Positions 8,101 through 34,713 are shown, counted from the stretch's first letter. The stretch: 43,840 nt of DNA from Promethearchaeota archaeon (GCA_008080735.1 SHMW01000028.1:1-43840); one strand, 5' to 3'. The notes: generated by a model from the sequence alone, not told the origin. Program-made: numbers and translations.

Positions 8101-10002
8101 TTAATCAAGACCGTCAAGATTTAATTCTCTAATTTTATTGACGGTCGGATGTCCAGTTTCTCTGTCCCATCCGCGTTCATCATAATAGTGGTCCAATAGA
8201 GATTCGGCTATTTCCCGGGTTATCTTCACATCCCCTTCGAAGTTTTTAAACTCGAGCTGATGATCTCCGTATTTTAAGGGTTTAAACCACTCGGGCGGAA
8301 ATTTATCATCAGCACGGAAAAATCCTTCTTTTTGGTTTAGAATTCGCAATAGATTCCACGTGCGTTCCGCTGCACTTCTCAGCTGCTCTGGAGTGATATC
8401 AAGTCCCGTGGCAGCATTGTAAAATTTCGCTACAGACTCAATACTATAAAACCGATTCATTTGGGCTCGAGCACACAATCCTAAACTTGTCAGAATCGTG
8501 TACCAATCTTCAGAATAGCGAGTCAATCGGCCTATATCAACCCCCATATCTGGTCTAGGAGGGTTAAATAGACGTGAATATGCTTCTTGCGGAATTCCCA
8601 TCCGAGCAAAATGTCGCCGAAATTTTTCCTTCGTATGTCCCGCGCCTACATAGGTAGGAGAGCCTCCAGAAGCTACATGCGCCCCTTTTGGATTTACTAC
8701 TTGTTCAAACTCCATAGTCCCCATCCTTAAGAAGCGTGGCTCGAACACCACATCGAGACCTTTGATAACAAGCATTTTCTTATCAAGTTCAGGATATGTT
8801 TTTGCTAATGTATTCCAGCCTCCCGCAAGAATATTTCCAAATCCTTCTCGAAAAGCGCACATCTCAATCAAGCGTATTAAAGAATGATAATCTCGTTTCC
8901 AATCGACTCCCGTTTCCGCTTCCGTGAGTGTTCCCTCTTCATTTATCGCTGCCAAAAAGTCTAATAATGCGGTGATAGTCAGAGAATCAAGACCATATCG
9001 ATTAATCAAATCAAACGCTTTAATAGCTTGACCATAGGTTTCCAGCCCATCGAGAGTCAGCATAAGGAAAGGATTAATAACGGAAGAGGTATAATTAGTC
9101 AGTCCAGAAAAGTTTCCCTCTTGAAGTTCCAGAAGGTCCTTATCAGCCATAGGGCACGACGGACAAGCCATCCGTCGATATTTAATTTTTTTCAGATAGG
9201 TGCGTTCATTACATTGCCGAGCCTTCTTTTTCTGCCCTTTGGCAGCTAAGATCATATTAATCGGTAAGGAGCGTAGCATACCTAGTTCATGCCAAGATTT
9301 ACGTTGAGGATAATTAGCAATGCGGTTATATAAGTCACGGTAAAGATTCATAAATTCTTTTGGACGTCCGATGGTAATTCCTTTATTGCCTTGGATGATG
9401 ATTGCTTTAAGATGTTTTGAACCCATTATTGCCCCGAGTCCCCCTCTCCCTAGGGTGGATGTTTTATCAATTAAGGTTAATGCAGAAACCACCATATTTT
9501 CCCCCGCTTGCCCAATCGCGATCACTCCCGAATTTCCGTACTCCTTTTTAAGGATATTGGTGGCTTCTACGATATCTTTGCCCCACAAATGAGTAGCATC
9601 GTTAATCCGTATCTGATCATTGTTTATATGCAAATAGCAAGGCTCGTCAGTTCCTCCTCGGATAATAATGTGATCATATCCCGCTTGTTTCATGTAAAAT
9701 GCAAAACTCATACTCCCGCAGGAATTGGCAATAGCACCAGTCGCGGGAAACTTCGACATCACGACCGTTCGGGAAGCGCCTGGCATAATAGACCCAACTA
9801 AAGGCCCCGTACCAACAATAATTGGGTTATCGGGCGATAAAGGCTCGATTTTAGGTTGGATAAGCTCTGCCGCGAGTCTGCAATTCATCCCAATTCCACC
9901 TACAAATTGCATAAGATCATCCAAGTCTTCTTCTTTAAGGATCGCATTTCCACTTGAAAGATCGATATCGAGGATCTGGCCCGTATAACCGTGCCAATTC
10001 AT
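8101..10002 (-). CDS. aor: Aldehyde:ferredoxin oxidoreductase (AOR/WOR) family protein, divergent
   Basis: GYTGQILDIDLS, PLSPDN, AIGQAGEN, GRGGLGAIMGSKHLKAI, YYDERGWD...GHP motifs. Confidence 0.92.
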   Translation of the reverse strand: MNWHGYTGQILDIDLSSGNAILKEEDLDDLMQFVGGIGMNCRLAAELIQPKIEPLSPDNPIIVGTGPLVGSIMPGASRTVVMSKFPATGAIANSCGSMSFAFYMKQAGYDHIIIRGGTDEPCYLHINNDQIRINDATHLWGKDIVEATNILKKEYGNSGVIAIGQAGENMVVSALTLIDKTSTLGRGGLGAIMGSKHLKAIIIQGNKGITIGRPKEFMNLYRDLYNRIANYPQRKSWHELGMLRSLPINMILAAKGQKKKARQCNERTYLKKIKYRRMACPSCPMADKDLLELQEGNFSGLTNYTSSVINPFLMLTLDGLETYGQAIKAFDLINRYGLDSLTITALLDFLAAINEEGTLTEAETGVDWKRDYHSLIRLIEMCAFREGFGNILAGGWNTLAKTYPELDKKMLVIKGLDVVFEPRFLRMGTMEFEQVVNPKGAHVASGGSPTYVGAGHTKEKFRRHFARMGIPQEAYSRLFNPPRPDMGVDIGRLTRYSEDWYTILTSLGLCARAQMNRFYSIESVAKFYNAATGLDITPEQLRSAAERTWNLLRILNQKEGFFRADDKFPPEWFKPLKYGDHQLEFKNFEGDVKITREIAESLLDHYYDERGWDRETGHPTVNKIRELNLDGLD

Positions 10003-12807: not shown

Positions 12808-15072
12808 CTATTGAGAATTCTGGTATTGCTGGAAAATGTTCTTCTCAATTAGAGATAGAACTGTTTCTGCGTCCTTAACTGGGAAGCCCCCCTTAGTACC
12901 GAGTAAATGACTCACAAAGAAGTAATTGACATTGCGCTTTTTAATAATGTGCTTAGCTCTGTTTATTATTGACTTCTCCTCAGAGGAGAGTTTTATCTCA
13001 AGATTATCATTAATTTCCAATGGATAAATAAGGGAAGTATTCAGATGATGGTCAACTAATTTTTTGATATTTCTAAATTCTTTTATGCTTCCCCCTCGAA
13101 ATTGCCGTATCGCATCTCCATAATATTTTTCTATTTCAAGTGAAAGCTTTCTTATCGATTCGAGAAAATCTTCAGACGGATTCTCATTCATAATTAATAT
13201 CACACGGAATTCTTTGTACTCTGTCATTAAGATTTTCGAGTTTTGGAATTCAAGCTTTATAGTTTGAGTTTGATCTTTAGAATTTGTTAATTCGATACCA
13301 AATGATCTCATCGCATCTAAAAATCCCGATACTAAGGTAGCGTCCATTTCCTTTCCCGTGAATTTCTGTTGGTATACATCCAATCCTGACTTTTTGTCAA
13401 TAATTAAGATGTATTGGAGATTAAGTATATCCATATATTTATTGTAAATTTTTAGACGGTGTCGTTCTTTCGAAGCCTTCACACGCTTATACACTTGATA
13501 TCCAGAGACGCTTCCCGCTAATCCAAGCATAGAGGCCAGAGCAATTATAATCACTACCATTGGGTCTAACGTAAAAGGAATGGTAATTTGAAAGGTTTGT
13601 ATTTGTATTCCCGCATTTGTTGCATTATTCCAAATTATATAACCAGTATGAATACCATCAAGTGGGTTTTCAGGTATTTGATATGAAAATGTAGTATCTT
13701 CTGAGCTGACTGACTTAGTTTGTTGATTTTCTAAAAATCCATCTGGATCATATAAAATAAAAGTCAGATTACCATCAATAGAGGGTGAATTAACAGAGAA
13801 TTGGAGATCTTGTAGAGGTTCAAGAGTAAGAGACCCGAAGGATATTGAAAAATCTATTTTCCTCGTTGCCGCTCTTATTTCCCAATTGGCATCTTTAATT
13901 TCATTATCTGGTATTTCTAAATATTTCTCATTTGTCTCAATTGTACAATTAACAGTGATATCCACGCTATCTCTAAAAATACGAAGATCTTCCCAATTAT
14001 TTGGATAATCAAATCTAATAGAATTATTACAACTACAATCTATTATCTCAGGTTCTAAGGTCCAATTAATATAATCTCCAGAAGTTCTTATAATACTGGT
14101 TCCGAGTGAATGCAGATTTTTAGAAAATCTACTGAAGTAGGTGACGTTAAAGATTAAGGGACTTGACTGGTTATTTAAAACCTCGATAGATATTGGATTA
14201 CTGTTGTCAGAGAGAAGGTTTATATTTGTCAAGTTCAATTTTCCCTCTCCTTTATTTATTATGTTATCTACTGGATGGTAATCATCCCCGATTTTAACAG
14301 ACATATTTATATCACTTGGGTAAAAATCATTCAATTTGATTTGATCCAATTTGTAAAGAAAAGTTGATTCATTTGAGGGATACCAAGTTGACCCCGAGAG
14401 GACTGATTTATATAATTCTGGATATATTGGATTAACATTGTTGTAGTCCCACCTATAAAATGTATTTCCGGTTTGAATACCAGAATTATTAAATAATAAA
14501 GAATAGTTTCCTTCGGGTAAAATTGGGGGTATTAAGAATTTTTGATAGTACCATTTAAGATCACCAGAAATATTCAATTTTAGATTCTTCCCAGCAAAAA
14601 TGGTTCCATTAGGTCTATTAAATTGATCATCGTATCCTTGAATTTGAAAATAAATATCATCACCGGGATTAGTATTACCCGCTTGCCCGTAAATATATGC
14701 ACCAAAAATCTTTGTCTCCGAAGTTAATTCTAATTGAATAGACATTATGGCTACATCCTTACTCATTATATCATAATTACGTGAAAAATTTTCACCAATG
14801 AAAATTTCTCTATCAAACTTAATTTCAGTGAAATTTACTTGAAGATTTTTTAGATTCCATACATCTCCCGAGGGAAGGTTTAAATTAATATAATTTAAAT
14901 TTTGTTCTGAACTTGAACTATACGCATATTCCAAAATATTAAATCTAGCTGAAGTATTATAGACAAATTCACCTGATTGAGCTCGAGAATTGATAGTATA
15001 GCTTAATATAGAGAAAAAGCCCATGAAAAAGACCATCGAAATCACTATTATATACTTATTTAATTTCTTCAT
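12808..15072 (-). CDS. Single-pass membrane glycoprotein with ectodomain and cytoplasmic longin-like plus wHTH-like tail (paralog B)
   Basis: Same architecture as 10430-12694; shared KIYNKYMDILNLQYILII; DATLVSGFLDAMRSFGIEL. Confidence 0.8.
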   Translation of the reverse strand: MKKLNKYIIVISMVFFMGFFSILSYTINSRAQSGEFVYNTSARFNILEYAYSSSSEQNLNYINLNLPSGDVWNLKNLQVNFTEIKFDREIFIGENFSRNYDIMSKDVAIMSIQLELTSETKIFGAYIYGQAGNTNPGDDIYFQIQGYDDQFNRPNGTIFAGKNLKLNISGDLKWYYQKFLIPPILPEGNYSLLFNNSGIQTGNTFYRWDYNNVNPIYPELYKSVLSGSTWYPSNESTFLYKLDQIKLNDFYPSDINMSVKIGDDYHPVDNIINKGEGKLNLTNINLLSDNSNPISIEVLNNQSSPLIFNVTYFSRFSKNLHSLGTSIIRTSGDYINWTLEPEIIDCSCNNSIRFDYPNNWEDLRIFRDSVDITVNCTIETNEKYLEIPDNEIKDANWEIRAATRKIDFSISFGSLTLEPLQDLQFSVNSPSIDGNLTFILYDPDGFLENQQTKSVSSEDTTFSYQIPENPLDGIHTGYIIWNNATNAGIQIQTFQITIPFTLDPMVVIIIALASMLGLAGSVSGYQVYKRVKASKERHRLKIYNKYMDILNLQYILIIDKKSGLDVYQQKFTGKEMDATLVSGFLDAMRSFGIELTNSKDQTQTIKLEFQNSKILMTEYKEFRVILIMNENPSEDFLESIRKLSLEIEKYYGDAIRQFRGGSIKEFRNIKKLVDHHLNTSLIYPLEINDNLEIKLSSEEKSIINRAKHIIKKRNVNYFFVSHLLGTKGGFPVKDAETVLSLIEKNIFQQYQNSQ

Positions 15073-16646: not shown

Positions 16647-18188
16647 CTATGTCCCAGCTATCCGTTTTGGGAAGCGAGATTGGGCTTGAAGATTTTTATG
16701 GAGCAATTTGTTTACTAACTTTAATTTAAGACTTTCCATGCTATCCTTAATCCATAAGTTATTCAATTCTCCGGGATCTTTCTTTCGGTTAAAAAGGTCT
16801 CCATAATGTTCTAAATTTTTATTTTTATCCTCATAAACTGTAAGTTTATATTCTTTGGTGATTAAATGTCGTAATCTAACATAAAGCGGACCTTTTGGAC
16901 CAACTTCTTCATCATTTTCTATAAGGATGCAATCCTTTACTTCTTTTGAGGGATCCCTTAAAACTTCCGTATAGTCTTTTCCTTGCATGTTAGGAGGGTG
17001 ATAACGTTCTCGAATATCTAACATACTCAAAATAGTTTTTGGTAGGTCTATAGATGCAATCAAAGCATCCGTGACTGTGTTAGGGTTGATTTCTGGAGCA
17101 CGAAAAATTAAGGGTACATTGAATACTCCTTCAAACGGAGCCGGCCCTTTGAAAAGGAGTCCATGTTCTCCCATTAAATCTCCATGGTCACTCGTATAAA
17201 TCACAATCGTATTGTCGGCATATCCCAACTTATCCAAAGAGGCTAAAATTTGTCCTATACTATGGTCTATTAACGCAATAGTGCCGTATGTCCACGCGAT
17301 AAATTGTTTTACCTCTTTTTCATTGGTTTCTCTGAGCATCGCTCCTGGAAATACATTAAGATAAGGAGCTAAAAATGGATGTTCACATAAATTCTCTAGA
17401 TCATCGAAATTATCTGGCAAGAACACATCATCTGGATTATAAAGCTCTCGATATTTTCCTGGTGGACAGACAGGTTGATGTGGATCTGGAAAGGAAGAAT
17501 GAACATAAAATGGTTTGTCTCCATACTCACCTCTGGCGTGGCGCTCTAAAAAAGCTATAGTGCGTTCTTCCACATATTTTGTAGAATAGAGATCCTTAGG
17601 TAAGTCATGCTCACAAAATACAGAAAAGAAATTATCAATATCATCCCATCTTTCTCGCATTGATTCTGCCAACTCAGGAGCTCTTTCTTCTAACCAATTC
17701 ATATAATGTCCAGTGAGACATGGTCCATGACCAATCACAGTCTCAACTTCTTGATATCCGTAATAGGGAATCGGGAAGTTTTCTCGAACCGGATACTCAC
17801 CTTTTTTAGGGAATACCCAATCATGAAATGATTCAGCAGATTTGTCCCCAATTCTATACGGAGGGGTATTAAATTGATGGTGTAATTTTCCAAATGCCGC
17901 AGTGTGCCATCCCTTATCAACTAAAGTGTCCGTAATTGTAGGAATTTCCCTTGACATGATCATTCCATTACTGCGAACACCATGAACATTCGGATAGAGC
18001 CCTGTAAGCAATGTTGCACGGTTTGGCATGCACATAGGGTTGGTACAAAACGCATTAGTGAATCTTACACCTTGGGAAGCTAATTTATCAAGATTTGGGG
18101 TCTTTAATACCTCATTTCCCGCACAACTCAGATGATCTGCTCGATGTTGATCTGAAATTATAAAAAGTACATTATATTTTTCACTCAT
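16647..18188 (-). CDS. Cys-type sulfatase (S1/AslA-like)
   Basis: NVLFIISDQHRAD, CMPNRATLLTG (CxPxR), GKLH, SFPDPH, YTSDHGDLMGEH. Confidence 0.93.
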   Translation of the reverse strand: MSEKYNVLFIISDQHRADHLSCAGNEVLKTPNLDKLASQGVRFTNAFCTNPMCMPNRATLLTGLYPNVHGVRSNGMIMSREIPTITDTLVDKGWHTAAFGKLHHQFNTPPYRIGDKSAESFHDWVFPKKGEYPVRENFPIPYYGYQEVETVIGHGPCLTGHYMNWLEERAPELAESMRERWDDIDNFFSVFCEHDLPKDLYSTKYVEERTIAFLERHARGEYGDKPFYVHSSFPDPHQPVCPPGKYRELYNPDDVFLPDNFDDLENLCEHPFLAPYLNVFPGAMLRETNEKEVKQFIAWTYGTIALIDHSIGQILASLDKLGYADNTIVIYTSDHGDLMGEHGLLFKGPAPFEGVFNVPLIFRAPEINPNTVTDALIASIDLPKTILSMLDIRERYHPPNMQGKDYTEVLRDPSKEVKDCILIENDEEVGPKGPLYVRLRHLITKEYKLTVYEDKNKNLEHYGDLFNRKKDPGELNNLWIKDSMESLKLKLVNKLLHKNLQAQSRFPKRIAGT

Positions 18189-22338: not shown

Positions 22339-23010
22339 ATGAACTTCGAAGAAAAAAGAAAGGAATTAGTTGAGAGTTTGAAGGACCGGGGGATTTTAAC
22401 GCAGCAAAATGTAATTGATGCCATGCTCAAAGTACCGCGAGAATTATTTATCCCTGAGGATGTCAAATCTTCTGCGTATGTGGATTCTCCATTGTCAATA
22501 GGATCGGGTCAAACAATTAGCGCACCCCATATGAATGCGATGATGTGTGAAATTCTCGAGTTGAAAGAGGGAGAAAAGGTTCTTGAAGTGGGAACAGGTT
22601 CGGGATATCATGCTGCGTTATGTGCCGAAATAATCGCTCCTCCAGATTCTAAATCTCCGGGTCATATATATACAATAGAGCGGCATGAGGATCTAGCAGA
22701 AAATGCACGCGAAAATTTTAAGAAAACGGGTTATGATGAGGTTATCACGGTAATTGTAGGAGATGGGACTTTGGGTTATGATAAAGAAGCTCCTTATGAT
22801 AAAATATTAGTCACCGCAGCCTCGCCCAGCGATATACCTTCACCTCTAAAAGATCAGTTGAAAGAGGGGGGTATTATGTGCATACCCGCGGGCTCCAAGC
22901 GATTCACGCAATATTTATATAAAATCCAAAACATTGACGGAGAAACAAAAAAGAAAAAAATCACAGGTGTGAGATTTGTCCCTCTGATGGGAAAACATGG
23001 ATTTGAGTAG
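22339..23010 (+). CDS. pcm: Protein-L-isoaspartate O-methyltransferase
   Basis: VPRELF, GQTISAPHM, VLEVGTGSGY, APYDKILVTAA, VRFVPL. Confidence 0.96.
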   Translation: MNFEEKRKELVESLKDRGILTQQNVIDAMLKVPRELFIPEDVKSSAYVDSPLSIGSGQTISAPHMNAMMCEILELKEGEKVLEVGTGSGYHAALCAEIIAPPDSKSPGHIYTIERHEDLAENARENFKKTGYDEVITVIVGDGTLGYDKEAPYDKILVTAASPSDIPSPLKDQLKEGGIMCIPAGSKRFTQYLYKIQNIDGETKKKKITGVRFVPLMGKHGFE

Positions 23011-23362: not shown

Positions 23363-23518
23363 CTAATGATTTAATTTTTCACGCTTTTTTTCCATTAGTT
23401 TGTTTCTTATCTTATTTACAAATTTACTACGATTTATCTTTTCTTTTAGTGAATCTTCACAATCATTCCAACAAGCTTGGATAGAACATACAGTATTACA
23501 TCTAAAGGTCTCAGACAT
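23363..23518 (-). CDS. 51-aa Cys-rich microprotein (family member 2; not in ORF track)
   Basis: MSETFRCNTVCSIQACWNDCEDSLKEKINRSKFVNKIRNKLMEKKREKLNH; SD GAGGAGGT at 23534-23527; 26/51 identities to member 1 without gaps. Confidence 0.85.
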   Translation of the reverse strand: MSETFRCNTVCSIQACWNDCEDSLKEKINRSKFVNKIRNKLMEKKREKLNH

Positions 23519-23662
23519 TTCTGTAGACCTCCTCAAAAATGATTAATTACCTTTCTTATTCATAACACAAAATAAAGATATTATTAGTGTTTTTATTATA
23601 GCCTAAAAACCAATCTAAGTTATTCCAATAAAAATTAAGTTTGTATTCATTTTACTTTTAGA

Positions 23663-23773
23663 GATTAATCATAAAAGAAGTGAAATAGATTAGCAAAATC
23701 TTATTTATTGAACTTCTTATTCATCAATTTTTTCCTAATATTTTTGAGATTTCAGTCTTTTTCTAAAATTCTT
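23663..23773. repeat. Left copy of direct repeat: non-coding remnant of the 3' end of microprotein member 3 and its downstream flank
   Basis: 23692-23750 identical to 32247-32305 (59 bp, offset 8555) with imperfect flanks; minus frame reads *VRILEKD*NLKNIRKKLMNKKFNK*. Confidence 0.92.
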
Positions 23774-23866
23774 ACCTATCCATATCATTAACACTCGAAG
23801 ATTATATCGATATGGGAAATTATTTCTAATAAGATTAAATTGAAATTATGAATATAAAAAAAAAAA

Positions 23867-24841
23867 TTAAAAATCTTCCAAAAAAATTACTTTTCCCTCA
23901 TTCTCAGCAGATTTAATTGAAGCCAAACATACTTTAACAGCCTCTTTGGCCTCACGTGGAGAAAGCAAAAACTTTTTTTCTCTATTTACTATCACATCAA
24001 AAAAGTGTTCTAATTGATTATAATAGGCATTAGCTGATTTATACACATCTTCCATCTGGAGATCTTCCTTATTATATATTGTTTCTTCGTCAAATTCAAT
24101 ATACCCATCAGATCCAATTATTTTTGTCTTCATTAATAATTCGTAATCTTCTGGTTGCGCCCAACTTGCCTCGCATTCTGCATTAGCATTTTGATAATTT
24201 AAATTTGTTATAGATTCACCAAATAAATCCATACCGTATTTATTAATTTTACTCGCTTTACAAGAAACAGATATGGGAGTTCCTAAAATCCATAAAATAT
24301 AGTCAATATCGTGTATTGATAGGTCTAATATAACTCCTCCAGATTTTTTTTGATCTGCGAACCATTTACTCCAGGGAAATGTGCTAAGTCTCTTTGAAGA
24401 AATTGACTGAATTGTACCAATTTCAGAATTATTATTCTCCAAATAATATTTAACATTTGCATATGTCGACCAGAACCTCAAACTGTGTCCAACAAAAAGT
24501 TTAATATTATTTTCCTTCATTGAATCGATGATTTTATCACATTCAATCACATTACGAGCCATTGGTTTTTCTAAAAAAATGTCTATTCCTTTTTCAGCGC
24601 AAGCACAAGATATTTCTTGGTGAGTATGCGTAGGTGTAGTTATCATTGCAATATCCAATTTTTCTTTTTCGAGCATCTTATCATAATCCTTGTAAAAAGA
24701 AATGTTTCTATGACCTCGAACCTTTTTTTCAGTTCGAGAGAACACTGAGGTTACTTTGACATTGGGAAAAATCTTCAAAATTGCCATATGAATTTTAGCA
24801 ATATATCCATATCCAATAACTCCAACTTTTAATTCTTCCAT
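23867..24841 (-). CDS. Gfo/Idh/MocA family oxidoreductase
   Basis: VGVIGYGYIA Rossmann motif, ITTPTHTH, IFLEKPMA, SGGVILDLSIHDID. Confidence 0.94.
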   Translation of the reverse strand: MEELKVGVIGYGYIAKIHMAILKIFPNVKVTSVFSRTEKKVRGHRNISFYKDYDKMLEKEKLDIAMITTPTHTHQEISCACAEKGIDIFLEKPMARNVIECDKIIDSMKENNIKLFVGHSLRFWSTYANVKYYLENNNSEIGTIQSISSKRLSTFPWSKWFADQKKSGGVILDLSIHDIDYILWILGTPISVSCKASKINKYGMDLFGESITNLNYQNANAECEASWAQPEDYELLMKTKIIGSDGYIEFDEETIYNKEDLQMEDVYKSANAYYNQLEHFFDVIVNREKKFLLSPREAKEAVKVCLASIKSAENEGKVIFLEDF

Positions 24842-24875
24842 TTTTTGAATATCCCTCTTTTCTAAAATTTATTAA

Positions 24876-25937
24876 TTAAGCTTTATCGTAAGTCAAAATT
24901 ACTTTTATAACTTCTTCAGGATTATTATCAATTAATTCGTACGCTTCTTGTGCTTTTTGAAACGGTATTTTATGTGTTATAAAATTTTCAATACTGAGCT
25001 TATTTTCCTGAAATAGTTTTATAACAACATTGTGAATACGATCCCTGTCCCAATTTGGATATCCTCTATGAGGACAACCCCAAACTCCCATACTCGAATA
25101 TAATGTAATTCTGTTGTGGTGCCATTCTTCTCCTAATCTTAATCCCTCTGCACTACCTTGATAAAAACCAGCCGCTACAACAGTTCCAGCCATTTTGACA
25201 CTTCTTATTGCATCATGAAGAGCTTTATAGTTTCCAGATGCCTCAATAGCGATATCTGCCCCCTCGTGAGAATCATTGGTTTTAAGTTCCATCCCCACAT
25301 CACAGTCAATTGGGTCATAGGTTTTATTAGCACCTAATTTTTCAGCTAGAGCTCTTCTTTTTGGAATAGGATCGACAGCGTCTATCCAAATAGCTCCATT
25401 TAGCTTGGCAAGTTGTAATATTATTAATCCTAAAGTTCCCAAACCAAAAATAATAATTCGATCTCCCAATTTTATGTGAGCGTCATGAACCGCTTGTAAT
25501 GCTACACCCGCTAATGCTAAAAATATTGCTTGATCGGTATCAAAATTTTCGGGTAAAGGTTCAATTTTTCCGTACATCGTCTCCATATCTTCAAAAAAAG
25601 TATGACTTGTTCGATGTCCTAAAGGTAAATGAACTATGTCGTCTCTTTTAAATTTTTTCACATTTTCTCCTATCTCTACAACTCTACCTACCCATTCATA
25701 GCCTAAGTTCATGGGATATGAGCTAAAGTTCTCACCCTTTAGAAATAATCTATTTTTCAGGTCAAAAATCTTATCATAAAAAGGAGCAGTCCCTTTAAAT
25801 AGATTTAGCTCGGTTCCATGACTTATCCCACTAGCAAGTGCGTTAGCTCTAACTTGGTTTGGTTTTAATCGTCGCTCTCTGCAAGATTTATATTCAATTC
25901 TATTTGGTTCTTTTATTATTATTTCGATCGGTTTCAT
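24876..25937 (-). CDS. MDR-superfamily dehydrogenase of the SxGTE/GY subgroup lacking canonical catalytic Zn ligands
   Basis: SGISHGTEL and LGYEWVG instead of C..D/GHE; GLGTLG NAD motif; ADIAIEASG. Confidence 0.9.
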   Translation of the reverse strand: MKPIEIIIKEPNRIEYKSCRERRLKPNQVRANALASGISHGTELNLFKGTAPFYDKIFDLKNRLFLKGENFSSYPMNLGYEWVGRVVEIGENVKKFKRDDIVHLPLGHRTSHTFFEDMETMYGKIEPLPENFDTDQAIFLALAGVALQAVHDAHIKLGDRIIIFGLGTLGLIILQLAKLNGAIWIDAVDPIPKRRALAEKLGANKTYDPIDCDVGMELKTNDSHEGADIAIEASGNYKALHDAIRSVKMAGTVVAAGFYQGSAEGLRLGEEWHHNRITLYSSMGVWGCPHRGYPNWDRDRIHNVVIKLFQENKLSIENFITHKIPFQKAQEAYELIDNNPEEVIKVILTYDKA

Positions 25938-25979
25938 TTTTAATCAATCAAATTTGTTAAATTTTCAATATTCTAACCA

Positions 25980-27413
25980 TTATATATTTTTCTCAATCAA
26001 GATTTCTTGTATTTTCAATTTTTTTGCTCCATAGATATCGTAGAACAAAAGGAATAGAATTCCCGCAATTAAAAGAAGAATTGCTGGAATGAGTCCAGTA
26101 TGAACTCGAACGCCTGTTACGGCTAATTGTGTTTGTACAGCATTAGGTTCCTGTATATAACCTGTCGCAATATGAACTATTGCAATAATCGCCGCTACAA
26201 TAAGGTAAGAAAATCGGAAAAAGAAATTTGCGATCCCTTGAAGGGTCGCGTCTTGATGTGCTCCTGTGGTGGCCGTTATTTCATCGAATGTGTCGGATAT
26301 GATGGGAAAAAGGATGATTGCTGGAGCGCTGTAGCAAAAGCCGACGAAAAATGCGCAAATGATAAATTGTAAGGGTGTAATTAACCATAAAAATGGTAAC
26401 AAAGCTAAACCCATAAAAATATATCCGTATCCGTATACCCTCCAATTTCCTATTTTCTTGCTAATCTTCAGCCATAGCGGAATTGCGACTAAAAATCCCA
26501 CTATAAAAGCTAACCATCCATACATCAAAAAATCAGTACCTTGCCCCAGTACATCCTCGATAAAATATAATTGGGAAGCGTAAAATAGGTTATATTCAAT
26601 TGCAAACAAGAAATAGGCTATAATGTAGACGATAAAATTCTTTTTACTCAATGCAACCTTCAAAATCTTTATTAACGATAACTTTTTTTCACCGGTCTCC
26701 TCTCGACCAACTAAATAACATTCCTTTACATGATCTGGTTCTCTAATCCCCGGGATAATTATAATGGCATTGATAAATAGAATAACCATAGTTATCCCAG
26801 AAGCAAGAACGAAGGATTCTTTGTTGCCAAATTCAAGAAAATTTGGTAAAATAATTGCATTAACCAAAATTAATCCCATCGTAGAAAATATTAATGCAAA
26901 AACCCCAAATTTTCTTCTAGAATTTTCTGTCTTAAATATCGCAATAGCACCTGCCGTAAGATTGGAATTGAGAATTGTATAGCATGTATCGAAAAGGCAA
27001 ATGGTCACAATCATATATATAAAAACTGGTAATGGATTTGATTTAGCATCAATGTTTGGGGGGAGGAATATAATGAAAAACAAAAAGGCAACAGAAAAGG
27101 CTCCGAAAATTATCCATGGAGTCCTAAAACCGTATTTCCCAATACTTTCTTTAGATCGGGGTTTTTCCGTTAAAAAAGCGATTAATGGATCATTAAATGC
27201 ATTCCAGACAGCAAAAATTCCAAAGGCTAAAGCAACATAAAAAACTGCAAGACCAATTTCAACTTCATAAAAGTAAAACACAGTCACGCCGTATATTGCG
27301 ATAATCATCGAATCGATTAACCAAGCACTAGTATAAGAAAGTATTTTTCCGAGAGAATGATTTGATCTTTCCTCGAGATTTTTTACTTCATTTATCTTAA
27401 CTTTTTCTTCCAT
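25980..27413 (-). CDS. MFS transporter, GPH/MelB-like sugar:cation symporter
   Basis: WNAFNDPLIAFLTEK, YGFRTPWI, PIISDTFDE; ~12 TM. Confidence 0.9.
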   Translation of the reverse strand: MEEKVKINEVKNLEERSNHSLGKILSYTSAWLIDSMIIAIYGVTVFYFYEVEIGLAVFYVALAFGIFAVWNAFNDPLIAFLTEKPRSKESIGKYGFRTPWIIFGAFSVAFLFFIIFLPPNIDAKSNPLPVFIYMIVTICLFDTCYTILNSNLTAGAIAIFKTENSRRKFGVFALIFSTMGLILVNAIILPNFLEFGNKESFVLASGITMVILFINAIIIIPGIREPDHVKECYLVGREETGEKKLSLIKILKVALSKKNFIVYIIAYFLFAIEYNLFYASQLYFIEDVLGQGTDFLMYGWLAFIVGFLVAIPLWLKISKKIGNWRVYGYGYIFMGLALLPFLWLITPLQFIICAFFVGFCYSAPAIILFPIISDTFDEITATTGAHQDATLQGIANFFFRFSYLIVAAIIAIVHIATGYIQEPNAVQTQLAVTGVRVHTGLIPAILLLIAGILFLLFYDIYGAKKLKIQEILIEKNI

Positions 27414-27646
27414 TTTAAAAACAATTCTCTACATATTATTAAGTCTAAAAAATTTAAGGCTTGATTATAACAATTTTTTAGATATAAATATAATAAAATT
27501 GGCATCATATATAAATGTTCGAAAAATAGTACCTTTTTCAAATGTTCGGATAAAAAATTTTACTGTGAAAAAATAAAAATCAAGAGGGATAAAGGATCTC
27601 TGATTCTTTATTCATATATATTAAAATATCTATCGTAAAAATGAAA

Positions 27647-28795
27647 TCAATATCTTCCAAATTCTTGGATTGCTTGAAAGAGAGCAATTATATTTTCTGG
27701 CTTCTGATCCAACAACCAATTTGTTGGTCCCGGAATATATCCTCCATCTTTCCCAAGCATCTTAATTTTATTTTGAATATCATTTCGAACCTCTTCAGGA
27801 GTACCATTTACCAGAAGATTAGTATCGTCGATAGTTCCTAAAAGTGCAATCTCTGGAAATTTTTTACGATATAGCTCTAAGTTGTTAATTGTAGGTTGAA
27901 GAGAATCTATACCATCAATGCCTAATTCCACAAAATCTGGAAAAAGCTCTTCGATAGCACCACAACAATGTAACAGAAATTTAACTCCAGATTCATGTGT
28001 TAATTCTACATATTTTTTCAAAATTGGTTTGAAAAAAGATTGCCAATGCTTTAGGGGTAGCTGAAGACCTCCATTATGACCGATATCACTCCCAATCATT
28101 ACTATCTCGGGTTTAGTTTTTAATAAGAGTTCTAAAGAAGGGCGTTGAAAATTTTCCCATAAGAAATTAATGTGTTTGTGTAAAAATTCAGGATCTTTTC
28201 TGGCAAGTTTCGCAAACATAGCATAACCTATTCCTAACACACATGTTTCAAATGGGCCATTGATTCCTTGTGCCACAACTATATCGTATTTTTTCATTTT
28301 CTTACGATTTTTGGAAAGTATTTTAAAACGCGCTTTATCTGGTCTTAAATCTTTTTGAGTTTCCCAAAATATTCTTATCTTCTCTTTAGTAGTTAAAGAA
28401 GGCGCAATATACCAATAACCCGGAATTCCATCATCGTTCACGATAAATTTAAAGATTTGGCCATTTTCAGTGACTAATGTATCAGATTCTGTGCCTTTTT
28501 TGAGAGGTATTCCATAGAGAACTTCCCAACACAAATCGATTTTAGCGTTTAATCCTCCCTCGTAAATCTCTTTAGGTGAGAATTTTGCCAGTAAATGCTG
28601 CGTGTGAAGAAAACGAGGAACAAGACCATCCTTGGCGAAATGTTCCAAATCTTCTTGAGTGAATGCATATGGAGAACGCATGAAATGATTTAGAAATTCA
28701 AAATCCGCCCCAAGACAAATACTTGGAACCCGATCGGGAACACCTCCTTCTAAAACGATATTTATTCTTTCAAAAGCAGTTAATTCGTCTTCCAT
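27647..28795 (-). CDS. Uroporphyrinogen decarboxylase-like / MtaA-CmuA family (corrinoid methyltransferase-like) protein
   Basis: PDRVP, GPF, SDIG, LLHCCG, GIDSLQP, GTPEEVR, GGYI motifs. Confidence 0.85.
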   Translation of the reverse strand: MEDELTAFERINIVLEGGVPDRVPSICLGADFEFLNHFMRSPYAFTQEDLEHFAKDGLVPRFLHTQHLLAKFSPKEIYEGGLNAKIDLCWEVLYGIPLKKGTESDTLVTENGQIFKFIVNDDGIPGYWYIAPSLTTKEKIRIFWETQKDLRPDKARFKILSKNRKKMKKYDIVVAQGINGPFETCVLGIGYAMFAKLARKDPEFLHKHINFLWENFQRPSLELLLKTKPEIVMIGSDIGHNGGLQLPLKHWQSFFKPILKKYVELTHESGVKFLLHCCGAIEELFPDFVELGIDGIDSLQPTINNLELYRKKFPEIALLGTIDDTNLLVNGTPEEVRNDIQNKIKMLGKDGGYIPGPTNWLLDQKPENIIALFQAIQEFGRY

Positions 28796-28797
28796 TT

Positions 28798-29166
28798 TTA
28801 AAACACGCTCGCTATAGCTCCTAAGTAAATTAAAACTTTATTATCGTTGATTTTTACGGTATTTTGCGATATTCCTTGAAAAATTTTATCAGCTCCTTCT
28901 AAAAGAAGATCTGAGGGAATAGCAAGATAGTAGTCGTAAAGATTTTTTGCTTCTTTTATATCTACTAAATTCATTATTTCATTTTCTATTTTTATGGAAA
29001 AATCTCCTTTATCTATACAAATTAGAAAGGCTGGGGGAGCATCTGTAATTAAAACTAATATTTTTATTTCAGTATCTGAATAATCTTTTTCCAATATCCC
29101 AAGTTCCTTTAAGATATATAATCCAGAATACATTAATGCGGGAAAACCAGTGTATTTTGCAGACAT
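28798..29166 (-). CDS. Hypothetical protein, possibly SCP2 sterol-carrier-like fold
   Basis: Size and alpha/beta pattern (ILVLITD..PAFLICIDKGDFSI...VKIND); fold call is a weak impression. Confidence 0.45.
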   Translation of the reverse strand: MSAKYTGFPALMYSGLYILKELGILEKDYSDTEIKILVLITDAPPAFLICIDKGDFSIKIENEIMNLVDIKEAKNLYDYYLAIPSDLLLEGADKIFQGISQNTVKINDNKVLIYLGAIASVF

Positions 29167-29403
29167 TTTTTTAACTATCTCAATATTAAAATTTTTTTCC
29201 TTCTATATATAAGTTTAACATTTGATATTTATATACTTTATCAAACCTTCGAAAATAGCCTAGATTTTAATTATCAAACGATTAACAAACTTTGAAAGGT
29301 TATTCTACTAACATAAAAGACTTCTAAACTTTTTTTAAAAACTCTGTATAAAAATAAAAAAAAGAGAATTGATTTTATTGAACTGAATTAATTGAATCCC
29401 TTT

Positions 29404-30159
29404 TTAGGATAAAGCAATTTTTCTTACCCACTGAGGTAAAGTAAATCCAATATAGAAAAATATTCCACCAATTATCCTAAATAAATAGACAAATATAATG
29501 AGTATCAGTAAATTTAGCCACCCCGACGTTAAAGTAACTCCGATAACAGCTATACCTGCTAATGCCGTTGTTAAAATGCCAATTAATAATAGCTTTCCTT
29601 TTATTTTATTTTCTACGTTATCCGTTTCGAAACATTGATAAACGAAAATGCTTGCAGTAAAAAGCATAATAACCGAAGAAATAAGGATCAATGATGAAAC
29701 AAGTATTGACCATGTAGTATAAATTCCCCCTTCAGTAGTGGCAACCATATCTGGATCAATGAACCATGCACCTATATAAATCAAAAACATGACGCTTGAT
29801 ATAACTATAGCGCCAATTTTTGTAAATTTAATCAATCTCTCTTTCATGGATATCAAACTTATGACACCAAATAAGAAGAACATCAGCGAAAAAAAGAATG
29901 GACTAAACATTAAATAGATGATAGGATCCGCAAGGGGTGTTCCGATTATTAAAATTTTAAAGAAAGAAATTATCCAGCCAATAGCCGTTACTCCCAATAG
30001 GAGAAAAGTGAAACTAAAATGAATCAGTTCAACCATTTTGTATTTGCGATACTTCCCGAAGAATAATCCGCTTAATATAAGATTTATTATAACGTAAGCA
30101 CATTGCGAAATTATAAATATGTATTCTTCTAACCCTAAGAGGACCATATTTTTTAGCAC
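29404..30159 (-). CDS. Stand-alone ~7-TM membrane protein
   Basis: Seven hydrophobic segments, C-terminal YIGFTLPQWVRK; no soluble domain; start may be the ATG at 30147. Confidence 0.75.
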   Translation of the reverse strand: MLKNMVLLGLEEYIFIISQCAYVIINLILSGLFFGKYRKYKMVELIHFSFTFLLLGVTAIGWIISFFKILIIGTPLADPIIYLMFSPFFFSLMFFLFGVISLISMKERLIKFTKIGAIVISSVMFLIYIGAWFIDPDMVATTEGGIYTTWSILVSSLILISSVIMLFTASIFVYQCFETDNVENKIKGKLLLIGILTTALAGIAVIGVTLTSGWLNLLILIIFVYLFRIIGGIFFYIGFTLPQWVRKIALS

Positions 30160-30306
30160 TTTGTTTATTGAAGACTTAACTAAACTTTTTTATTGTTAAT
30201 TAAATTATCTTTGAAGTGTTATAAATATATTAATATTTTTCATATATTTTCAAATGTTAGATAATATTATATTAAATCATACTTAAAAATTTTAATCCAT
30301 ATATAT

Positions 30307-31053
30307 ATGCCAAAAAAAGAAAATAATTCTTCGGATAAGAGACAAAAGTTTGAAGATTTAATGGATGATTTAAACAGAAGTATTAAAGTTATGGAAATCT
30401 TAGATAGTGTCCCTCGTATCCGAATTGCTCTATTATTGCTCATTTATCAAAAATTAAGCTTAGCCCAATTAAGTTCTCTTCTAAATCGTTCAAAAGCAAC
30501 GGTCACACACCATCTTAAAAAGTTCGAAGATTTAGGACTACTCAATATTACGAGAAAAGACGCTAGAGGCTCAATAGACGCTAAAGTGTACGAATTCAAT
30601 TCTGACTTTTTTAAATCTGTTCAGCTAAGCATGGATGATTTAAAATCGATAAAACCTGAAGAAGCGAAAAACATATTTAAAACTGCCATTAGAAAAGATC
30701 AGCTAATATTCGAATTAATTAAAAATATCTACGAAATATCAGATGATTTTTATCAAGGGATTCAGACATTATTAGATACTAATTCTCTTGAAAATATTCA
30801 AAAAAAATACTTTAAATCTCCGATTAGTTATCAATTTTGGTTTTTAGATGAGGAAGGTTATGAATCGTACGAAAAATTAATAAATGAATTTAATAATAAG
30901 ATGAGAGAAATCGTCAAAAAATCAACTCAAAAAAAGCCAGAAGAAATTGAGAGATCTTATTGTATCTTTCATTCATTCTTACCCTTAAAACATATTATAA
31001 AATATGATTTGCGAAATAAGCGATTTTTAAAATTTCTCGGCGTTTTCGACTAG
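30307..31053 (+). CDS. ArsR-type winged-helix transcriptional regulator
   Basis: RIRIALLL...LSLAQLSSLLNRSKATVTHHLKKFEDLGLL; divergent from the cassette genes. Confidence 0.88.
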   Translation: MPKKENNSSDKRQKFEDLMDDLNRSIKVMEILDSVPRIRIALLLLIYQKLSLAQLSSLLNRSKATVTHHLKKFEDLGLLNITRKDARGSIDAKVYEFNSDFFKSVQLSMDDLKSIKPEEAKNIFKTAIRKDQLIFELIKNIYEISDDFYQGIQTLLDTNSLENIQKKYFKSPISYQFWFLDEEGYESYEKLINEFNNKMREIVKKSTQKKPEEIERSYCIFHSFLPLKHIIKYDLRNKRFLKFLGVFD

Positions 31054-31398
31054 ATTTTAATCATTATATTTGATTTTGTAATTGAATAATTCCAGATTTT
31101 TTATCATTTTTAATTCCAAAAATACTTCCATTAGTACTTAACTTCCAGAAAAAAAGTTTTATCATCAAATTCCTCTTGAACTTATATTTCAATTTTTAAA
31201 TGATTAGCTTTCGTTTCCCATTCAGGGGATAGATGTTAATTTTCTCCCAATCTATCGAGTTATTATAAGATCCTCAAGAAAAACTTCTATAGCAGTAAAA
31301 TCTTTAATAAATCAATATCCCAATCTAAGATAAGAAAATTCTATCGTTTGGGTTCCTGAATATAAGTTTATATTGATAATTTAGATAAAATCTGGGAC

Positions 31399-32031
31399 TC
31401 AAATTTCAGCCAATCTCTTGATGCGTTTTACACCATCAATGGCGTCTTCTGCAAAATCGTCTGCTCCGAGCTTACTAGCCAAGTCCATATTTAAGGGAGC
31501 TCCGCCTACGATAAGCTTGACTTTATCTCTCAAACCCGCATCTTGCAAAGTTTTATGAACTGTATTTATTTCTTCTACTGTCATCGTTAATAAGGAACTT
31601 AATGCCACAATGCTAGCCTTAGTATCCTTTACTTTTTCTACAATTGTAGTTTCGTCCACATCCATACCCAAGTCAATAACTTCAAATCCAGAACTTAATA
31701 ATAATGAAGCGAGGATATTTTTACCAATATCATGATTATCTCCTTTCACCGTAGCGAGAATTACTTTCGTTTTGCTTTGTGATTTATCAGCTGCTGCCAA
31801 GGCGGGCTGCAATATTTTGAACGCCTCTTTCATTGTTTCGCCAGCTAAAACTAATTCCGTCAAGTAATATTCTTTTTCTTCATATCTACGACCTACTTCA
31901 TCCATACCCAATGTTAATGCTTTTAAAACTTTGAATGGATCTTTAACTTCTTTTAGAGCTTCTTTTACAGCGTCAGCAATATCTTCTATTTCTAATTCGA
32001 TAATCAATTCTGTTAAGGTTTCTAAATTCAT
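31399..32031 (-). CDS. Methyltransferase cognate corrinoid protein (MtaC/MttC-like)
   Basis: Cap domain GMDEVGRRYE..EYYLTEL; DxHxxG motif GDNHDIGKN; DLG, LSSL, VGGAP. Confidence 0.95.
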   Translation of the reverse strand: MNLETLTELIIELEIEDIADAVKEALKEVKDPFKVLKALTLGMDEVGRRYEEKEYYLTELVLAGETMKEAFKILQPALAAADKSQSKTKVILATVKGDNHDIGKNILASLLLSSGFEVIDLGMDVDETTIVEKVKDTKASIVALSSLLTMTVEEINTVHKTLQDAGLRDKVKLIVGGAPLNMDLASKLGADDFAEDAIDGVKRIKRLAEI

Positions 32032-32217
32032 TTTTGTAGTATTTGATTAATTAGTCAATTTTTTTTATTTTTTGAAAATCATACATTTTATATAAATGCT
32101 TTTTTTCTAATGTTAGAATTTTCGACTTGAATTTTTCGATGATGAAGATTTAAAAATAATAAAGATCGAAAATAAAAAATTTGATAATATCTACTCGATT
32201 TAGTTAAATATTTTAAC

Positions 32218-32329
32218 GATTAATCACAAAAGAAGGGGATAAGAACAGCAAAATCTTATTTATTGAACTTCTTATTCATCAATTTTTTCCTAATATTTTT
32301 GAGATATTCGTTCTTCTCTAAGCATTCTT
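32218..32329. repeat. Right copy of direct repeat, overlapping the 3' half of microprotein member 3
   Basis: 32247-32305 identical to 23692-23750. Confidence 0.92.
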
Positions 32330-32393
32330 CTAGAGTTTTATTGTTAAACGTCCAGCTTGACCTTCTGTATGGGTTATGGCGATAATCTCTCAT
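32256..32393 (-). CDS. 45-aa basic microprotein (family member 3, lacking the Cys motif; not in ORF track)
   Basis: MRDYRHNPYRRSSWTFNNKTLEECLEKNEYLKNIRKKLMNKKFNK; aligns without gaps to members 1 and 2 from the conserved W onward; TTTAAATA TATA-like box about 50 bp upstream; no clear SD. Confidence 0.7.
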   Translation of the reverse strand: MRDYRHNPYRRSSWTFNNKTLEECLEKNEYLKNIRKKLMNKKFNK

Positions 32394-32529
32394 GAGTTTA
32401 AATTGATGTTTTTTTACTTCTAGTTTTAGATGGGTTTTCTAACTATTTAAATGTTAAGAATTTCGACAAATTGCATAAATGGTGGTGAAAAAGGAGGAAA
32501 AATCATAAAATTTAAAAAGGATAAATTAA

Positions 32530-34713
32530 CTACGTGATAGTCAACCTTATCTTTACGGTAAAATCTTTTTCAAAATTGAAAATAGGAATCACATTAGTCC
32601 CCTGGTAGATGTTCTTATATCCCTCATCAGTCCAGGTATATGAGATGAGGGGAAATTTGGAAATTTTGTGCCGAAGTTCAGAATCGATTTGGACTTCGAA
32701 AGTAAGGTCATATGTCTTATCATATGCGCTAAAATGAGAACCAATATATTCAAATTGGTCTTGAAGTTGATTATCCTTTATTAGATGCTCGTCCAAATCG
32801 CTACTTTTCCAAGAAAATTTCTTAGGATCTCCATTAAAGAAGAAAGGAATATCAATCCCAAAATTAAGACGTTCTAAGAATTGTTTTAAATTCTTCTCTA
32901 TTAGGGTTGAATTCTTCAATGTCCCAGAAAGTATAATACTGATAACATTTTTCTCAACTTCAATTTTTTTTTGAAGGTCCAAAAGATAGGTTTTTTCAGA
33001 AGTAATATCCTTTATTTCTCCTAATTTTTCCAAAATAATGGTTGCATTTTCCCCATCTTTTTCGGATTTCTTTACTTCAAAATCTAAATCGGGGATATTT
33101 GAGTACTCAGCATAAGTATCCGCCGCTAACTCGTCCAGAGAAGTATTGTCTTGAAAAATTCTGAATCTGAGCATACTTCTTCTGAAGCGATCAACAGATA
33201 TTTCGTTGTTTTCAATTTTTTCTTTTTCGTGATAGGCCTCCTCCCAACGCGTGAGAGTATTAAGCAGATTATAGGATTTAGGCTTATAATCCAGTTCAAA
33301 AATGGTTCCACCTTGAGCAGGATCTATATACAGATTTAGTGTGTCCGATTCTAAAATCAGTTCAGATCTACTTTTTTTATAGAAATCAACAGGTAAGACA
33401 CTCATATATGAACCAAGCTTTGGATATATAAGTTGATTAATTTTATCAATGAGATTTTCCGCATTAATCAATCGTTTGTATATTGCGAATCGTAAGAATT
33501 GTAAATATACACCCCCGAATAGTCCGTGCCAATATGCATCATTACATTGGGCTTTATGGATTTCTTCCCAAGCCTCTTCGACTTTTTTTCTAATTGTATC
33601 TTTTATGGTCTTATCCTCGAGACTCTTTAATTTATTTTCGAGTCCTATTAGCTTTTCACGGATATAAAGCATTTTTTTATGCATATTATTTGATTCAGGG
33701 TATTTTACCAGAAAATATCGCCAAAACCCTCCCTTTAAAAACATATAGAGGTCTTGTTTTTCTTCGCTTTCCCTCAGCTTATCTCTATAATCTTCAAAAT
33801 TCCTGCGGATTTTTGTTGGCAGTACCCATTCTTCCATTTTATCATAAGAAGCCGTTGGCAGATAGACCAAGTCTTTTGCGGGGAATTTCTCCATGTATTC
33901 AGAGAGAGTGATTGATTTTATCCATTCATTATCTCGGATTCTTCTAAAGAGCATAGGAATAAAGGGTTTTCCGCTATCACCTTCTTCATGTCCGCAGCCC
34001 TCATTATAACAAATTTGATGGGTCGAACCCCACACACCCATTTTTTCTGCATCCGAGATTAGAAGTGCCATCCTATCTCCTTTCTTATCGGCGATGGTTT
34101 TTAAATGATCTATAGTCTGTGTCGTAGGTTTCCAGGGAGTTAAATAACGGAGCTCTTCATTTATGGGAAAAATTCTTAGCGTTTTTCCTTCATCCTCGGT
34201 ATTATAAGAATAAAGAGTCTCTTCTTGAGAAATGCCCGTGGATCTGAAATGATTATCATCAACTATAACATATTTCAATCCTGCCTCGACTAAAAAGGAA
34301 GGATAATTCGGTTCCCATACCCTTTCGGAAAGCCAGGCACCGTTTACTGCCAAATGAAATTCCTTCTCTATTAATTGCGTAAGCTTTCTGATTTGAGCAA
34401 TCCTATCACGTCGAGGAATCACCGCATAAATAGGTTCATAATATCCTCCCCCGATAATTTCAATCTGTCCTCTGTGTGCCATTTCTCGAATTTTATTAAT
34501 AAATTTTGGTTTGTTCTCTAGAAACCATTCTAAAATATTTCCCGAAAAATGAAGCGTAACTTTTATCTCTGGAAAGTTATAGATATTTTGTATTAATGGT
34601 TTGTATGATTTTTGAAAACTCTCCTCAAAAACCCACGGAAAATTATCTACTGGCTGGTGAAAATGGAAAACAATTGGAAAATAGATACTTGGTTCTGTGT
34701 TGGTTTTACTCAT
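32530..34713 (-). CDS. GH57 alpha-amylase / 4-alpha-glucanotransferase
   Basis: HFHQP, GGGYYEP, WLSERVWEP (nucleophile), SDAEKMG (acid/base), AQCNDAYWHGLFGG. Confidence 0.95.
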   Translation of the reverse strand: MSKTNTEPSIYFPIVFHFHQPVDNFPWVFEESFQKSYKPLIQNIYNFPEIKVTLHFSGNILEWFLENKPKFINKIREMAHRGQIEIIGGGYYEPIYAVIPRRDRIAQIRKLTQLIEKEFHLAVNGAWLSERVWEPNYPSFLVEAGLKYVIVDDNHFRSTGISQEETLYSYNTEDEGKTLRIFPINEELRYLTPWKPTTQTIDHLKTIADKKGDRMALLISDAEKMGVWGSTHQICYNEGCGHEEGDSGKPFIPMLFRRIRDNEWIKSITLSEYMEKFPAKDLVYLPTASYDKMEEWVLPTKIRRNFEDYRDKLRESEEKQDLYMFLKGGFWRYFLVKYPESNNMHKKMLYIREKLIGLENKLKSLEDKTIKDTIRKKVEEAWEEIHKAQCNDAYWHGLFGGVYLQFLRFAIYKRLINAENLIDKINQLIYPKLGSYMSVLPVDFYKKSRSELILESDTLNLYIDPAQGGTIFELDYKPKSYNLLNTLTRWEEAYHEKEKIENNEISVDRFRRSMLRFRIFQDNTSLDELAADTYAEYSNIPDLDFEVKKSEKDGENATIILEKLGEIKDITSEKTYLLDLQKKIEVEKNVISIILSGTLKNSTLIEKNLKQFLERLNFGIDIPFFFNGDPKKFSWKSSDLDEHLIKDNQLQDQFEYIGSHFSAYDKTYDLTFEVQIDSELRHKISKFPLISYTWTDEGYKNIYQGTNVIPIFNFEKDFTVKIRLTIT

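Follow-up and report, generated by a model that had tools for sequence, protein, structure and literature searches.

How can a gene cassette with catabolic features become part of an archaeal chromosome when it carries no gene for its own movement? The question is raised by a locus of a Promethearchaeota archaeon (GCA_008080735.1, SHMW01000028.1:1-43840; the window, in what follows, is this whole stretch of 43,840 nt). Between pcm, which encodes protein-L-isoaspartate O-methyltransferase, and a gene for a glycoside hydrolase of family GH57, a cassette of about 8.4 kb is bracketed by two copies of a microprotein (mp) gene, an intact one (mp3) next to the GH57 gene and a decayed one next to mp2 and mp1. 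An earlier reading, made from the sequence alone, had described this as the duplicated 3' end of a gene, resembling the attachment (att) sites of integrative elements, and had proposed the mp gene as a hotspot for metabolic cassettes. The cassette is a lineage-specific insertion, and the relatives keep the empty site. As to the route, we favour a one-off insertion driven by homology at a flexible locus, rather than an active mobile element, and give this explanation a probability of roughly 0.45.

The evidence for an insertion comes from the relatives, which were found via the GH57 protein and are Promethearchaeota or Promethearchaeia metagenome-assembled genomes (MAGs), a few of them with other Asgard labels. 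The genes for FMN reductase, U32 peptidase, pcm, mp gene(s), GH57 and a protein of 575 aa are contiguous in 17 of the first 20 genomes of the host's family that were examined. Empty-site alleles, for which the sequence-only reading had proposed a search, are present in about 30 species from at least 10 genera, in which pcm, mp and GH57 follow each other directly; four of the six other species of the host genus are among them. The pcm-GH57 interval measures 9520 nt here, compared with 291-1345 nt in 30 named Promethearchaeota loci, where it holds only one to three mp genes or a small open reading frame (ORF). With the site empty in relatives and the interval so long here, the cassette is to be taken as a derived, lineage-specific insertion in a conserved array. 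The claim that deleting 8555 bp would restore a contiguous array of three genes is borne out by the spacing. After this deletion, 164 nt lie between the mp2 start and the mp3 stop, in line with the two nearest relatives: the distance from the mp1 start to the mp3 stop is 167-169 nt in G006, the nearest species with an intact locus (73-85% protein identity), and the corresponding distance in G003, a species of the host genus, is 168 nt.

The opposite polarity, in which the cassette is ancestral and the empty sites of the relatives are secondary deletions between the repeats, is very unlikely. Recombination between the repeats would remove the cassette cleanly, and the resident locus of G003 has a deletion scar that starts inside mp1 and runs into the spacer downstream of mp3. 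Against this stand the spread of empty sites over so many species and genera, the rarity of homologues of the cassette's Zn-dehydrogenase (69% identity; 2 of 120 family genomes, at other loci) and the lack of any pseudo-mp3 remnant in the relatives' loci examined.

The repeat pair was found exactly as previously described. The longest perfect run at an offset of 8555 nt is a direct repeat of 59 nt (23692-23750 and 32247-32305). It is embedded in a repeat of 111 nt with 86% identity (23656-23766 and 32211-32321), where about 110 bp of homology had been claimed, and this is the sole repeat family linking both ends of the cassette. The right copy of the 111 nt consists of the last 22 codons, the stop codon and 45 nt of 3' flank of the intact mp3, that is, the 3' half of the gene, as had been noted. 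A whole-genome search gave two copies only in the 4.1 Mb of the host, so that this is not a dispersed element, and a 16-nt motif from the 3' flank of the repeat likewise occurs only twice. The genome is in general poor in repeats: nine intra-contig pairs are spaced 1-60 kb apart, and the mp3 pair has the widest spacing of all. Outside the genome, exact-match scans with two stretches of the core, one of 44 nt in JGI metagenomes and one of 40 nt in IMG/VR viral contigs, gave nothing. A function of the core as a terminator or structured RNA was also considered and rejected, there being no terminator-like site and no Rfam hit.

Beyond the 111 nt, weaker homology runs on through the entire gene (23656-23843 and 32211-32406) and ends 13 nt before the mp3 start. 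Global alignment of the segments to the right of the core (23751-23843 and 32306-32406) gives a score of 15, a value reached by none of 2000 shuffles (-8.3 ± 4.3), and, at a nearly colinear offset, 25 nt around the start codon of mp3 show 80% identity. The duplicated unit measures about 196 nt, from 45 nt 3' of the stop to 13 nt 5' of the start, with the promoter excluded. The left copy lies on the same strand as mp2 and mp1, adjoining them upstream of both; it has ATT in place of ATG and three in-frame stops, and it ends in the same 15 C-terminal residues as mp3. In another frame it reads R-N-N-F-P-Y-R, to be compared with R-D-Y-R-H-N-P-Y-R in mp3, and its 17 C-terminal residues match the mp family profile (E 0.0038, genome-wide). 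Since the homology extends through the whole gene, the left copy is a full-length pseudogene, an entire mp3 gene that has decayed and lacks a promoter, and not merely a 3' half. Thus, the earlier description of a start-less remnant with stops, upstream of members 2 and 1, was right, whereas the confinement of the duplicate to the 3' end of the gene has to be given up.

Identity along this unit is mosaic, with 27 of 36 positions, then 59 of 59, then 10 of 16 and finally about 60% with indels. An overall divergence of about 30% makes a mismatch-free run of 59 nt wildly improbable, which excludes the uniform decay of an identical duplicate. From the alignment we infer, and consider this robust, that the perfect tract records a crossover or gene conversion between the copies. 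The same mosaic favours host homologous recombination or gene conversion over an att site. Of the two routes left open by the sequence-only reading, mobilisation in trans and homologous recombination, it is therefore the second that gains.

The genes that frame the cassette form a real family. A set of 26 mp sequences from relatives aligns with a near-invariant Trp and Arg and a common basic C-terminal motif, and neither Pfam nor NCBIfam has a model for it. The family profile finds one to four copies per genome in 119 of the 135 genomes of the host's family and none in the five genomes of genus g8; in the host genome it finds the three mp genes and the left remnant, and nothing more. The mp genes are tandem units with a period of about 310-340 nt, co-directional with GH57 and nearly always situated between pcm and GH57. 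The periods of mp1, mp2 and pseudo-mp3 in the window are 351 and 338 nt. A promoter motif shared by mp3 and the corrinoid-protein gene of the cassette was considered and discarded as not above chance (about 0.4 expected, by a hand estimate; the pattern search missed the motif, which contains an indel).

We think that the insertion and the duplication were probably a single recombinational event, although the route itself can only be reconstructed. A donor DNA carrying the cassette beside a promoterless mp3 homologue would have recombined with the chromosomal mp3 through the homologous recombination system of the host, either by a single crossover with a circular intermediate, of the Campbell type, or by an equivalent event anchored in homology. 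Campbell-type integration needs no dedicated recombinase; the homology is duplicated around the insert, the copies are hybrid and a perfect tract marks the crossover. The outcome here would be an intact mp3 beside GH57 and a dead copy beside mp2, with the 59-nt tract as the trace of crossover or conversion. Several features are as expected from such an event. Both copies are contiguous with native DNA on their outer side, as seen from the 164-nt spacer and from the mp3 upstream region, which is 88% identical to that of G003. The cassette starts exactly at the edge of the homology. Moreover, the duplicated unit of 196 nt is shorter than the array period of 310-340 nt, which sets it apart from an ordinary duplication of one unit. 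Under the Campbell-type model the inner halves of the copies would come from the donor and the outer halves would be native; the left copy is strongly diverged in its inner half, as expected, but the inner 3' flank of the right copy is at least as similar to G003 as the outer one. In its structure, the locus thus looks like an insertion by homologous recombination at a flexible locus; the duplicated homology around the insert and a parallel homeologous scar in G003, described below, are what it has in common with Campbell-type or homology-facilitated insertions. The present state is best read as a fixed chromosomal islet and not as an autonomous mobile element, even if the cassette could still be lost, and the array of three genes restored, through RadA-type recombination at the 59-nt repeats.

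Some observations weigh against this explanation. In its 3' flank, the right copy is a little closer to the resident locus of G003 than the left copy is (scores of 40 and 29) and, further to the left of the right copy, there is a 26-nt match to the region downstream of the resident mp3 of G003 (p ~0.014); together they fit a model in which the right copy is native along with all of its downstream spacer. The pseudo-copy keeps a clade-specific P-Y-R motif and could, for this reason, be an old duplicate formed in place. In addition, crossover would be inefficient between sequences that are 60-75% identical outside the core, and this low homology for RadA is one difference from an efficient Campbell-type exchange. 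The other is that the case is known here without donor or intermediate: neither a donor nor a second mp3-tagged cassette came up in the genome, metagenome and viral searches.

The flank scores, the 26-nt stretch and the P-Y-R motif would be accounted for if the duplication had come first. An array of four units, mp1-mp2-mp3a-mp3b, would have formed, mp3a would have decayed, the cassette would have arrived later by illegitimate recombination upstream of mp3a, and conversion from mp3b would have given the 59-nt tract. The array does vary from one to four copies in the family through unit duplication, and the regular periods from mp1 to pseudo-mp3 agree with such a history. Nevertheless, we consider this order of events unlikely, if worth keeping in mind. 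A tandem pair of mp3-type copies free of extra DNA is seen in none of the relatives examined. The homology, just 196 nt long and ending 13 nt before the start, stays below one period, the cassette must have landed exactly at its edge, and the conversion must have begun between sequences already 60-75% identical.

Within the cassette and the other ORFs of the window, searches of Pfam, NCBIfam and PHROGs found no integrase, transposase, excisionase or replication protein, in agreement with the sequence-only reading as far as the integrase is concerned. The two cassette ORFs of unknown kind could be accounted for, one as a seven-transmembrane (7TM) protein and the other as a conserved partner of the methyltransferase. 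The host genome has one clear tyrosine recombinase only, on another contig, and no terminal inverted repeats were seen among the inverted repeats listed. A target-site duplication left by a transposon, which would be identical and 2-15 nt in length, was ruled out, as the repeat is 111-196 nt long and mosaic and no transposase is present. Compared with the islands and proviruses that insert at the 3' end of tRNA or protein-coding genes and bring a substitute 3' end with them, the locus has repeats that bracket the cargo, one in an intact gene and one as a displaced remnant, as well as an empty site and a restorable target. It differs from them in having no integrase, excisionase, transfer gene or second instance, and in a repeat that consists of an entire decayed gene and is mosaic in its identity; its target is a gene for a microprotein of 45 aa, unlike that of islands targeting tRNA genes.

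Could a recombinase encoded elsewhere have moved the cassette? In that case the 59-nt core would serve as an att site within the mp3 3' end, and the cassette would resemble a cis-mobilizable element (CIME) whose integrase was lost or was never there. The layout does recall attL and attR with a restored 3' end of the target gene, the length of the core is typical of elements that target 3' ends, and relatives with an empty site exist. CIMEs by definition keep attL and attR without integration genes, and such att-flanked islands have been described in bacteria (streptococci), not in archaea (PMC5704250). As in CIMEs, the repeats flank a segment without recombination genes. CIMEs share their att sites with the integrase system of a cognate integrative conjugative or integrative mobilizable element (ICE/IME), whereas here no such partner or shared att site was found: the core and its 3'-flank motif are absent from the rest of the genome and from viral and JGI metagenome contigs, and no other element, integrase or cassette lies beside the mp genes in the relatives' loci examined (the family-wide profile search mapped mp genes only). 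The genome's tyrosine recombinase is not linked to the locus. Asgard mobile elements published to date carry integrase genes and are located at tRNA genes (PMC8813620). Flanking repeats with one copy in the 3' end of the target, and an empty site, are thus at hand; with neither a recombinase of its own nor a cognate system, the locus lacks what defines an integrative element and a CIME, respectively. We regard integration in trans as distinctly unlikely. It is decidedly improbable that the mp3 3' end is a true attachment site at which integrase-less metabolic cassettes are captured or released by a chromosomal recombinase acting in trans; if it were, archaea would have, independently of tRNA genes, a counterpart of cis-mobilizable elements or of integron-like cassette capture.

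The assembly itself also deserves attention, for this is a short-read MAG of 140 contigs with 7% contamination, of which the window is one entire contig. A free circle of 8.5 kb sharing the core and threaded into the chromosomal contig, or another artefact giving a loop at the shared repeat, would look identical. At the contig ends there are fifteen exact repeats with a length of exactly 77 nt, the signature of a de Bruijn assembly with a final k of 77. The 59-nt core is shorter than this k and its flanks diverge within a few bases, so both paths through the core are backed by real 77-mers. No contig with an alternative empty site or a circle junction is present in the assembly, the composition of the cassette is typical of the genome and it has no replication gene. 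An artefact is therefore highly improbable.

Flexible genomic islets occur at conserved hot spots between core genes, and the pcm-GH57 interval behaves in a similar way. Although most species of the family keep it minimal, different cargo was found there in several relatives, as had been suggested. In G005, from the same genus (contig C8, 49866-69633), about 17 kb lie between pcm and the mp genes, and an Rce1-like gene lies between mp and GH57. This block encodes a class II RNR, NUDIX, SDR and LRR proteins, the corrinoid activase RACo, a thermosome subunit and an HTH_10 regulator, together with an MttB-family methyltransferase, a corrinoid protein, SCP2 and two MtrH-like proteins; no recombinase was found in it. 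G024 carries a GH32 glycoside hydrolase gene between mp3 and pcm (L043:4130-5530), with GDPD and endo/exonuclease-phosphatase genes in place of the U32 gene, and Loki_b31 has an ORF of 220 aa in the interval. In G003 (contig C372, L026:7440-9720) there is a partial, highly diverged duplicate of the locus, made up of pcm', mp2', mp3' and a C-terminal fragment of GH57' (49% identical). It joins without homology to the last 31 codons of a second pcm, a 3' remnant of mp1, a frameshifted mp3 and the resident GH57 gene (81%). This scar looks like a homeologous segment from another lineage joined by homology-facilitated illegitimate recombination, a term used as in PMC8116780.

The cargo and scars of these four genomes indicate that the interval changes repeatedly. 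Like flexible islets, it has fixed anchors, pcm and GH57, with cargo that is specific to the species. The extra DNA of the other variable relatives lies elsewhere in the interval, without mp duplication, and cargo bracketed by mp3 copies occurs in the host genome only. Of the hotspot claim, therefore, the variability of the interval stands, whereas the mp gene is not established as a recurrent target. A separate observation concerns the resident locus of G003 (L026:9340-9420), where additional DNA of about 75-95 nt, richer in GC and containing an inverted repeat (CCCCT...AGGGG), lies between the conserved 3'-flank motif and the stop of mp3; a structured RNA or a small insertion may account for it.

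As regards its cargo, the cassette holds eight intact genes, all on one strand but for that of the ArsR-family regulator. There is a TATA-like sequence upstream of the first gene, and a run of 11 T follows the last stop codon, which makes the cassette resemble a complete expression unit. It looks like a self-contained catabolic unit, if these signals function as they would seem to. The combination of a corrinoid protein, an MtaA/URO-D-like methyltransferase with its 122-aa partner, a GPH symporter and IolG- and IolM-like dehydrogenases suggests that a methylated sugar or cyclitol is demethylated in a corrinoid-dependent manner and then oxidised. Neither a gene for an MtrH-type methyl acceptor nor one for the RACo activase is in the cassette.

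A foreign composition can be rejected, since the tetranucleotide distance to the genome places the cassette at the 82nd percentile of windows of equal size (flanks, 81st and 88th) and its GC content is 31.2% vs 33.6% for the genome. Recent duplication within the genome was also rejected: the best paralogues are 81% identical for the corrinoid protein and 70% for the methyltransferase, and at most 37% for the other genes. The methyltransferase and its 122-aa partner are the sole part of the cassette that is widespread in the family. G004, from the host genus, has, at another locus, a module in different order with a methyltransferase of 75%, a corrinoid protein of 79%, a transporter of 50% and a regulator of 34% identity, and G003 has a similar, rearranged module, also at another locus; the family profile found no mp remnants flanking the methyltransferase modules of these two genomes. 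Homologues of the GFO/IDH/MocA oxidoreductase are found on four metagenome contigs at 51-63% identity, without synteny. The transporter has no close relative among the genome contigs searched, and the methyltransferase has no match in viral contigs. For two cassette proteins, the 7TM protein and the ArsR regulator, the nearest clusters come from Promethearchaeota. Judging from these comparisons, the cassette genes belong to the local Promethearchaeota gene pool. Table 1 collects the positions and the evidence for each feature.

Table 1. Features of the pcm-GH57 locus, in window coordinates.
Feature	Position	Strand	Evidence
pcm (protein-L-isoaspartate O-methyltransferase), left anchor	22339-23010	+	Pfam PCMT, E 6.6e-68; syntenic in relatives
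mp1, Cys-type microprotein of 55 aa	23012-23179	-	profile E 1.3e-17; ortholog in G006 with 65% identity
mp2, Cys-type microprotein, probable ATG start at 23518	23363-23536	-	profile E 5.7e-19; family alignment
Left copy, pseudo-mp3: 45 nt of 3' flank, pseudo-coding sequence ~23701-23838, start region	23656-23843	-	repeat and alignment
Left 59-nt perfect core	23692-23750	.	identity at repeat offset
T11 run on coding strand just past GFO stop; probably an oligo-T terminator for the operon (putative function)	23853-23863	-	sequence
GFO/IDH/MocA oxidoreductase (IolG-like)	23867-24841	-	domain searches
Zn-dependent dehydrogenase (IolM/Tdh-like)	24876-25937	-	domain searches
GPH/MFS_2 sugar:cation symporter	25980-27413	-	domain searches
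URO-D/MtaA-like methyltransferase	27647-28795	-	domain searches; modules of relatives
Protein of 122 aa, constant neighbour of the URO-D-like gene in the family	28798-29166	-	gene neighbourhood
7TM membrane protein of 251 aa, HisKA_7TM-like fold, Promethearchaeota-specific	29404-30159	-	protein comparison
ArsR-family winged helix-turn-helix regulator	30307-31053	+	domain searches
Corrinoid (B12-binding) protein	31399-32031	-	domain searches
Right copy: intact mp3 (45 aa, coding sequence 32256-32393), 45 nt of 3' flank, 13 nt of leader	32211-32406	-	83% DNA identity to resident mp3 of G003
Right 59-nt perfect core	32247-32305	.	identity at repeat offset
Conserved mp3 upstream region with TATA-like TTTAAAT	32394-32529	-	identity to G003 88% (135 nt) and to G006 94% (49 nt)
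GH57 alpha-amylase/4-alpha-glucanotransferase, conserved right anchor	32530-34713	-	protein homology, synteny

Other repeats were observed apart from this locus. In the window, two further exact repeats of at least 30 nt are found, at 3876-3920 and 4179-4223, with a period of 303 nt inside an ORF with a Big_5 domain (3524-5392), and at 17024 and 18694, between two tandem sulfatase paralogues. Elsewhere in the host genome (G000), direct repeats of 100 nt with 91% identity (C44:6659-6758 and 8952-9049) surround 2.3 kb with a weak integrase-like fragment (C44:8494-8706), and another pair (C66:13242-13380 and 14338-14474) lies about 3 kb from the only clear tyrosine recombinase of the genome (C66:17166-17687). 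Both of these pairs may be remnants of integrase-type elements.

The locus is a real, well-delimited, lineage-specific gain of genes, and its borders are a fairly ordinary recombination scar at a variable spot of the chromosome. Little is known on how Asgard archaea gain accessory metabolism, and the locus offers a clean, datable case, with an empty site in relatives, both junctions intact and what appears to be a complete operon as cargo. Here, a seemingly catabolic module has entered a Lokiarchaeia-type chromosome without a dedicated mobility gene. Besides flagging a conserved microprotein family and a candidate module for corrinoid-dependent demethylation, the case can be used, in our opinion, to ask whether these organisms acquire genes mainly through their own homologous recombination.

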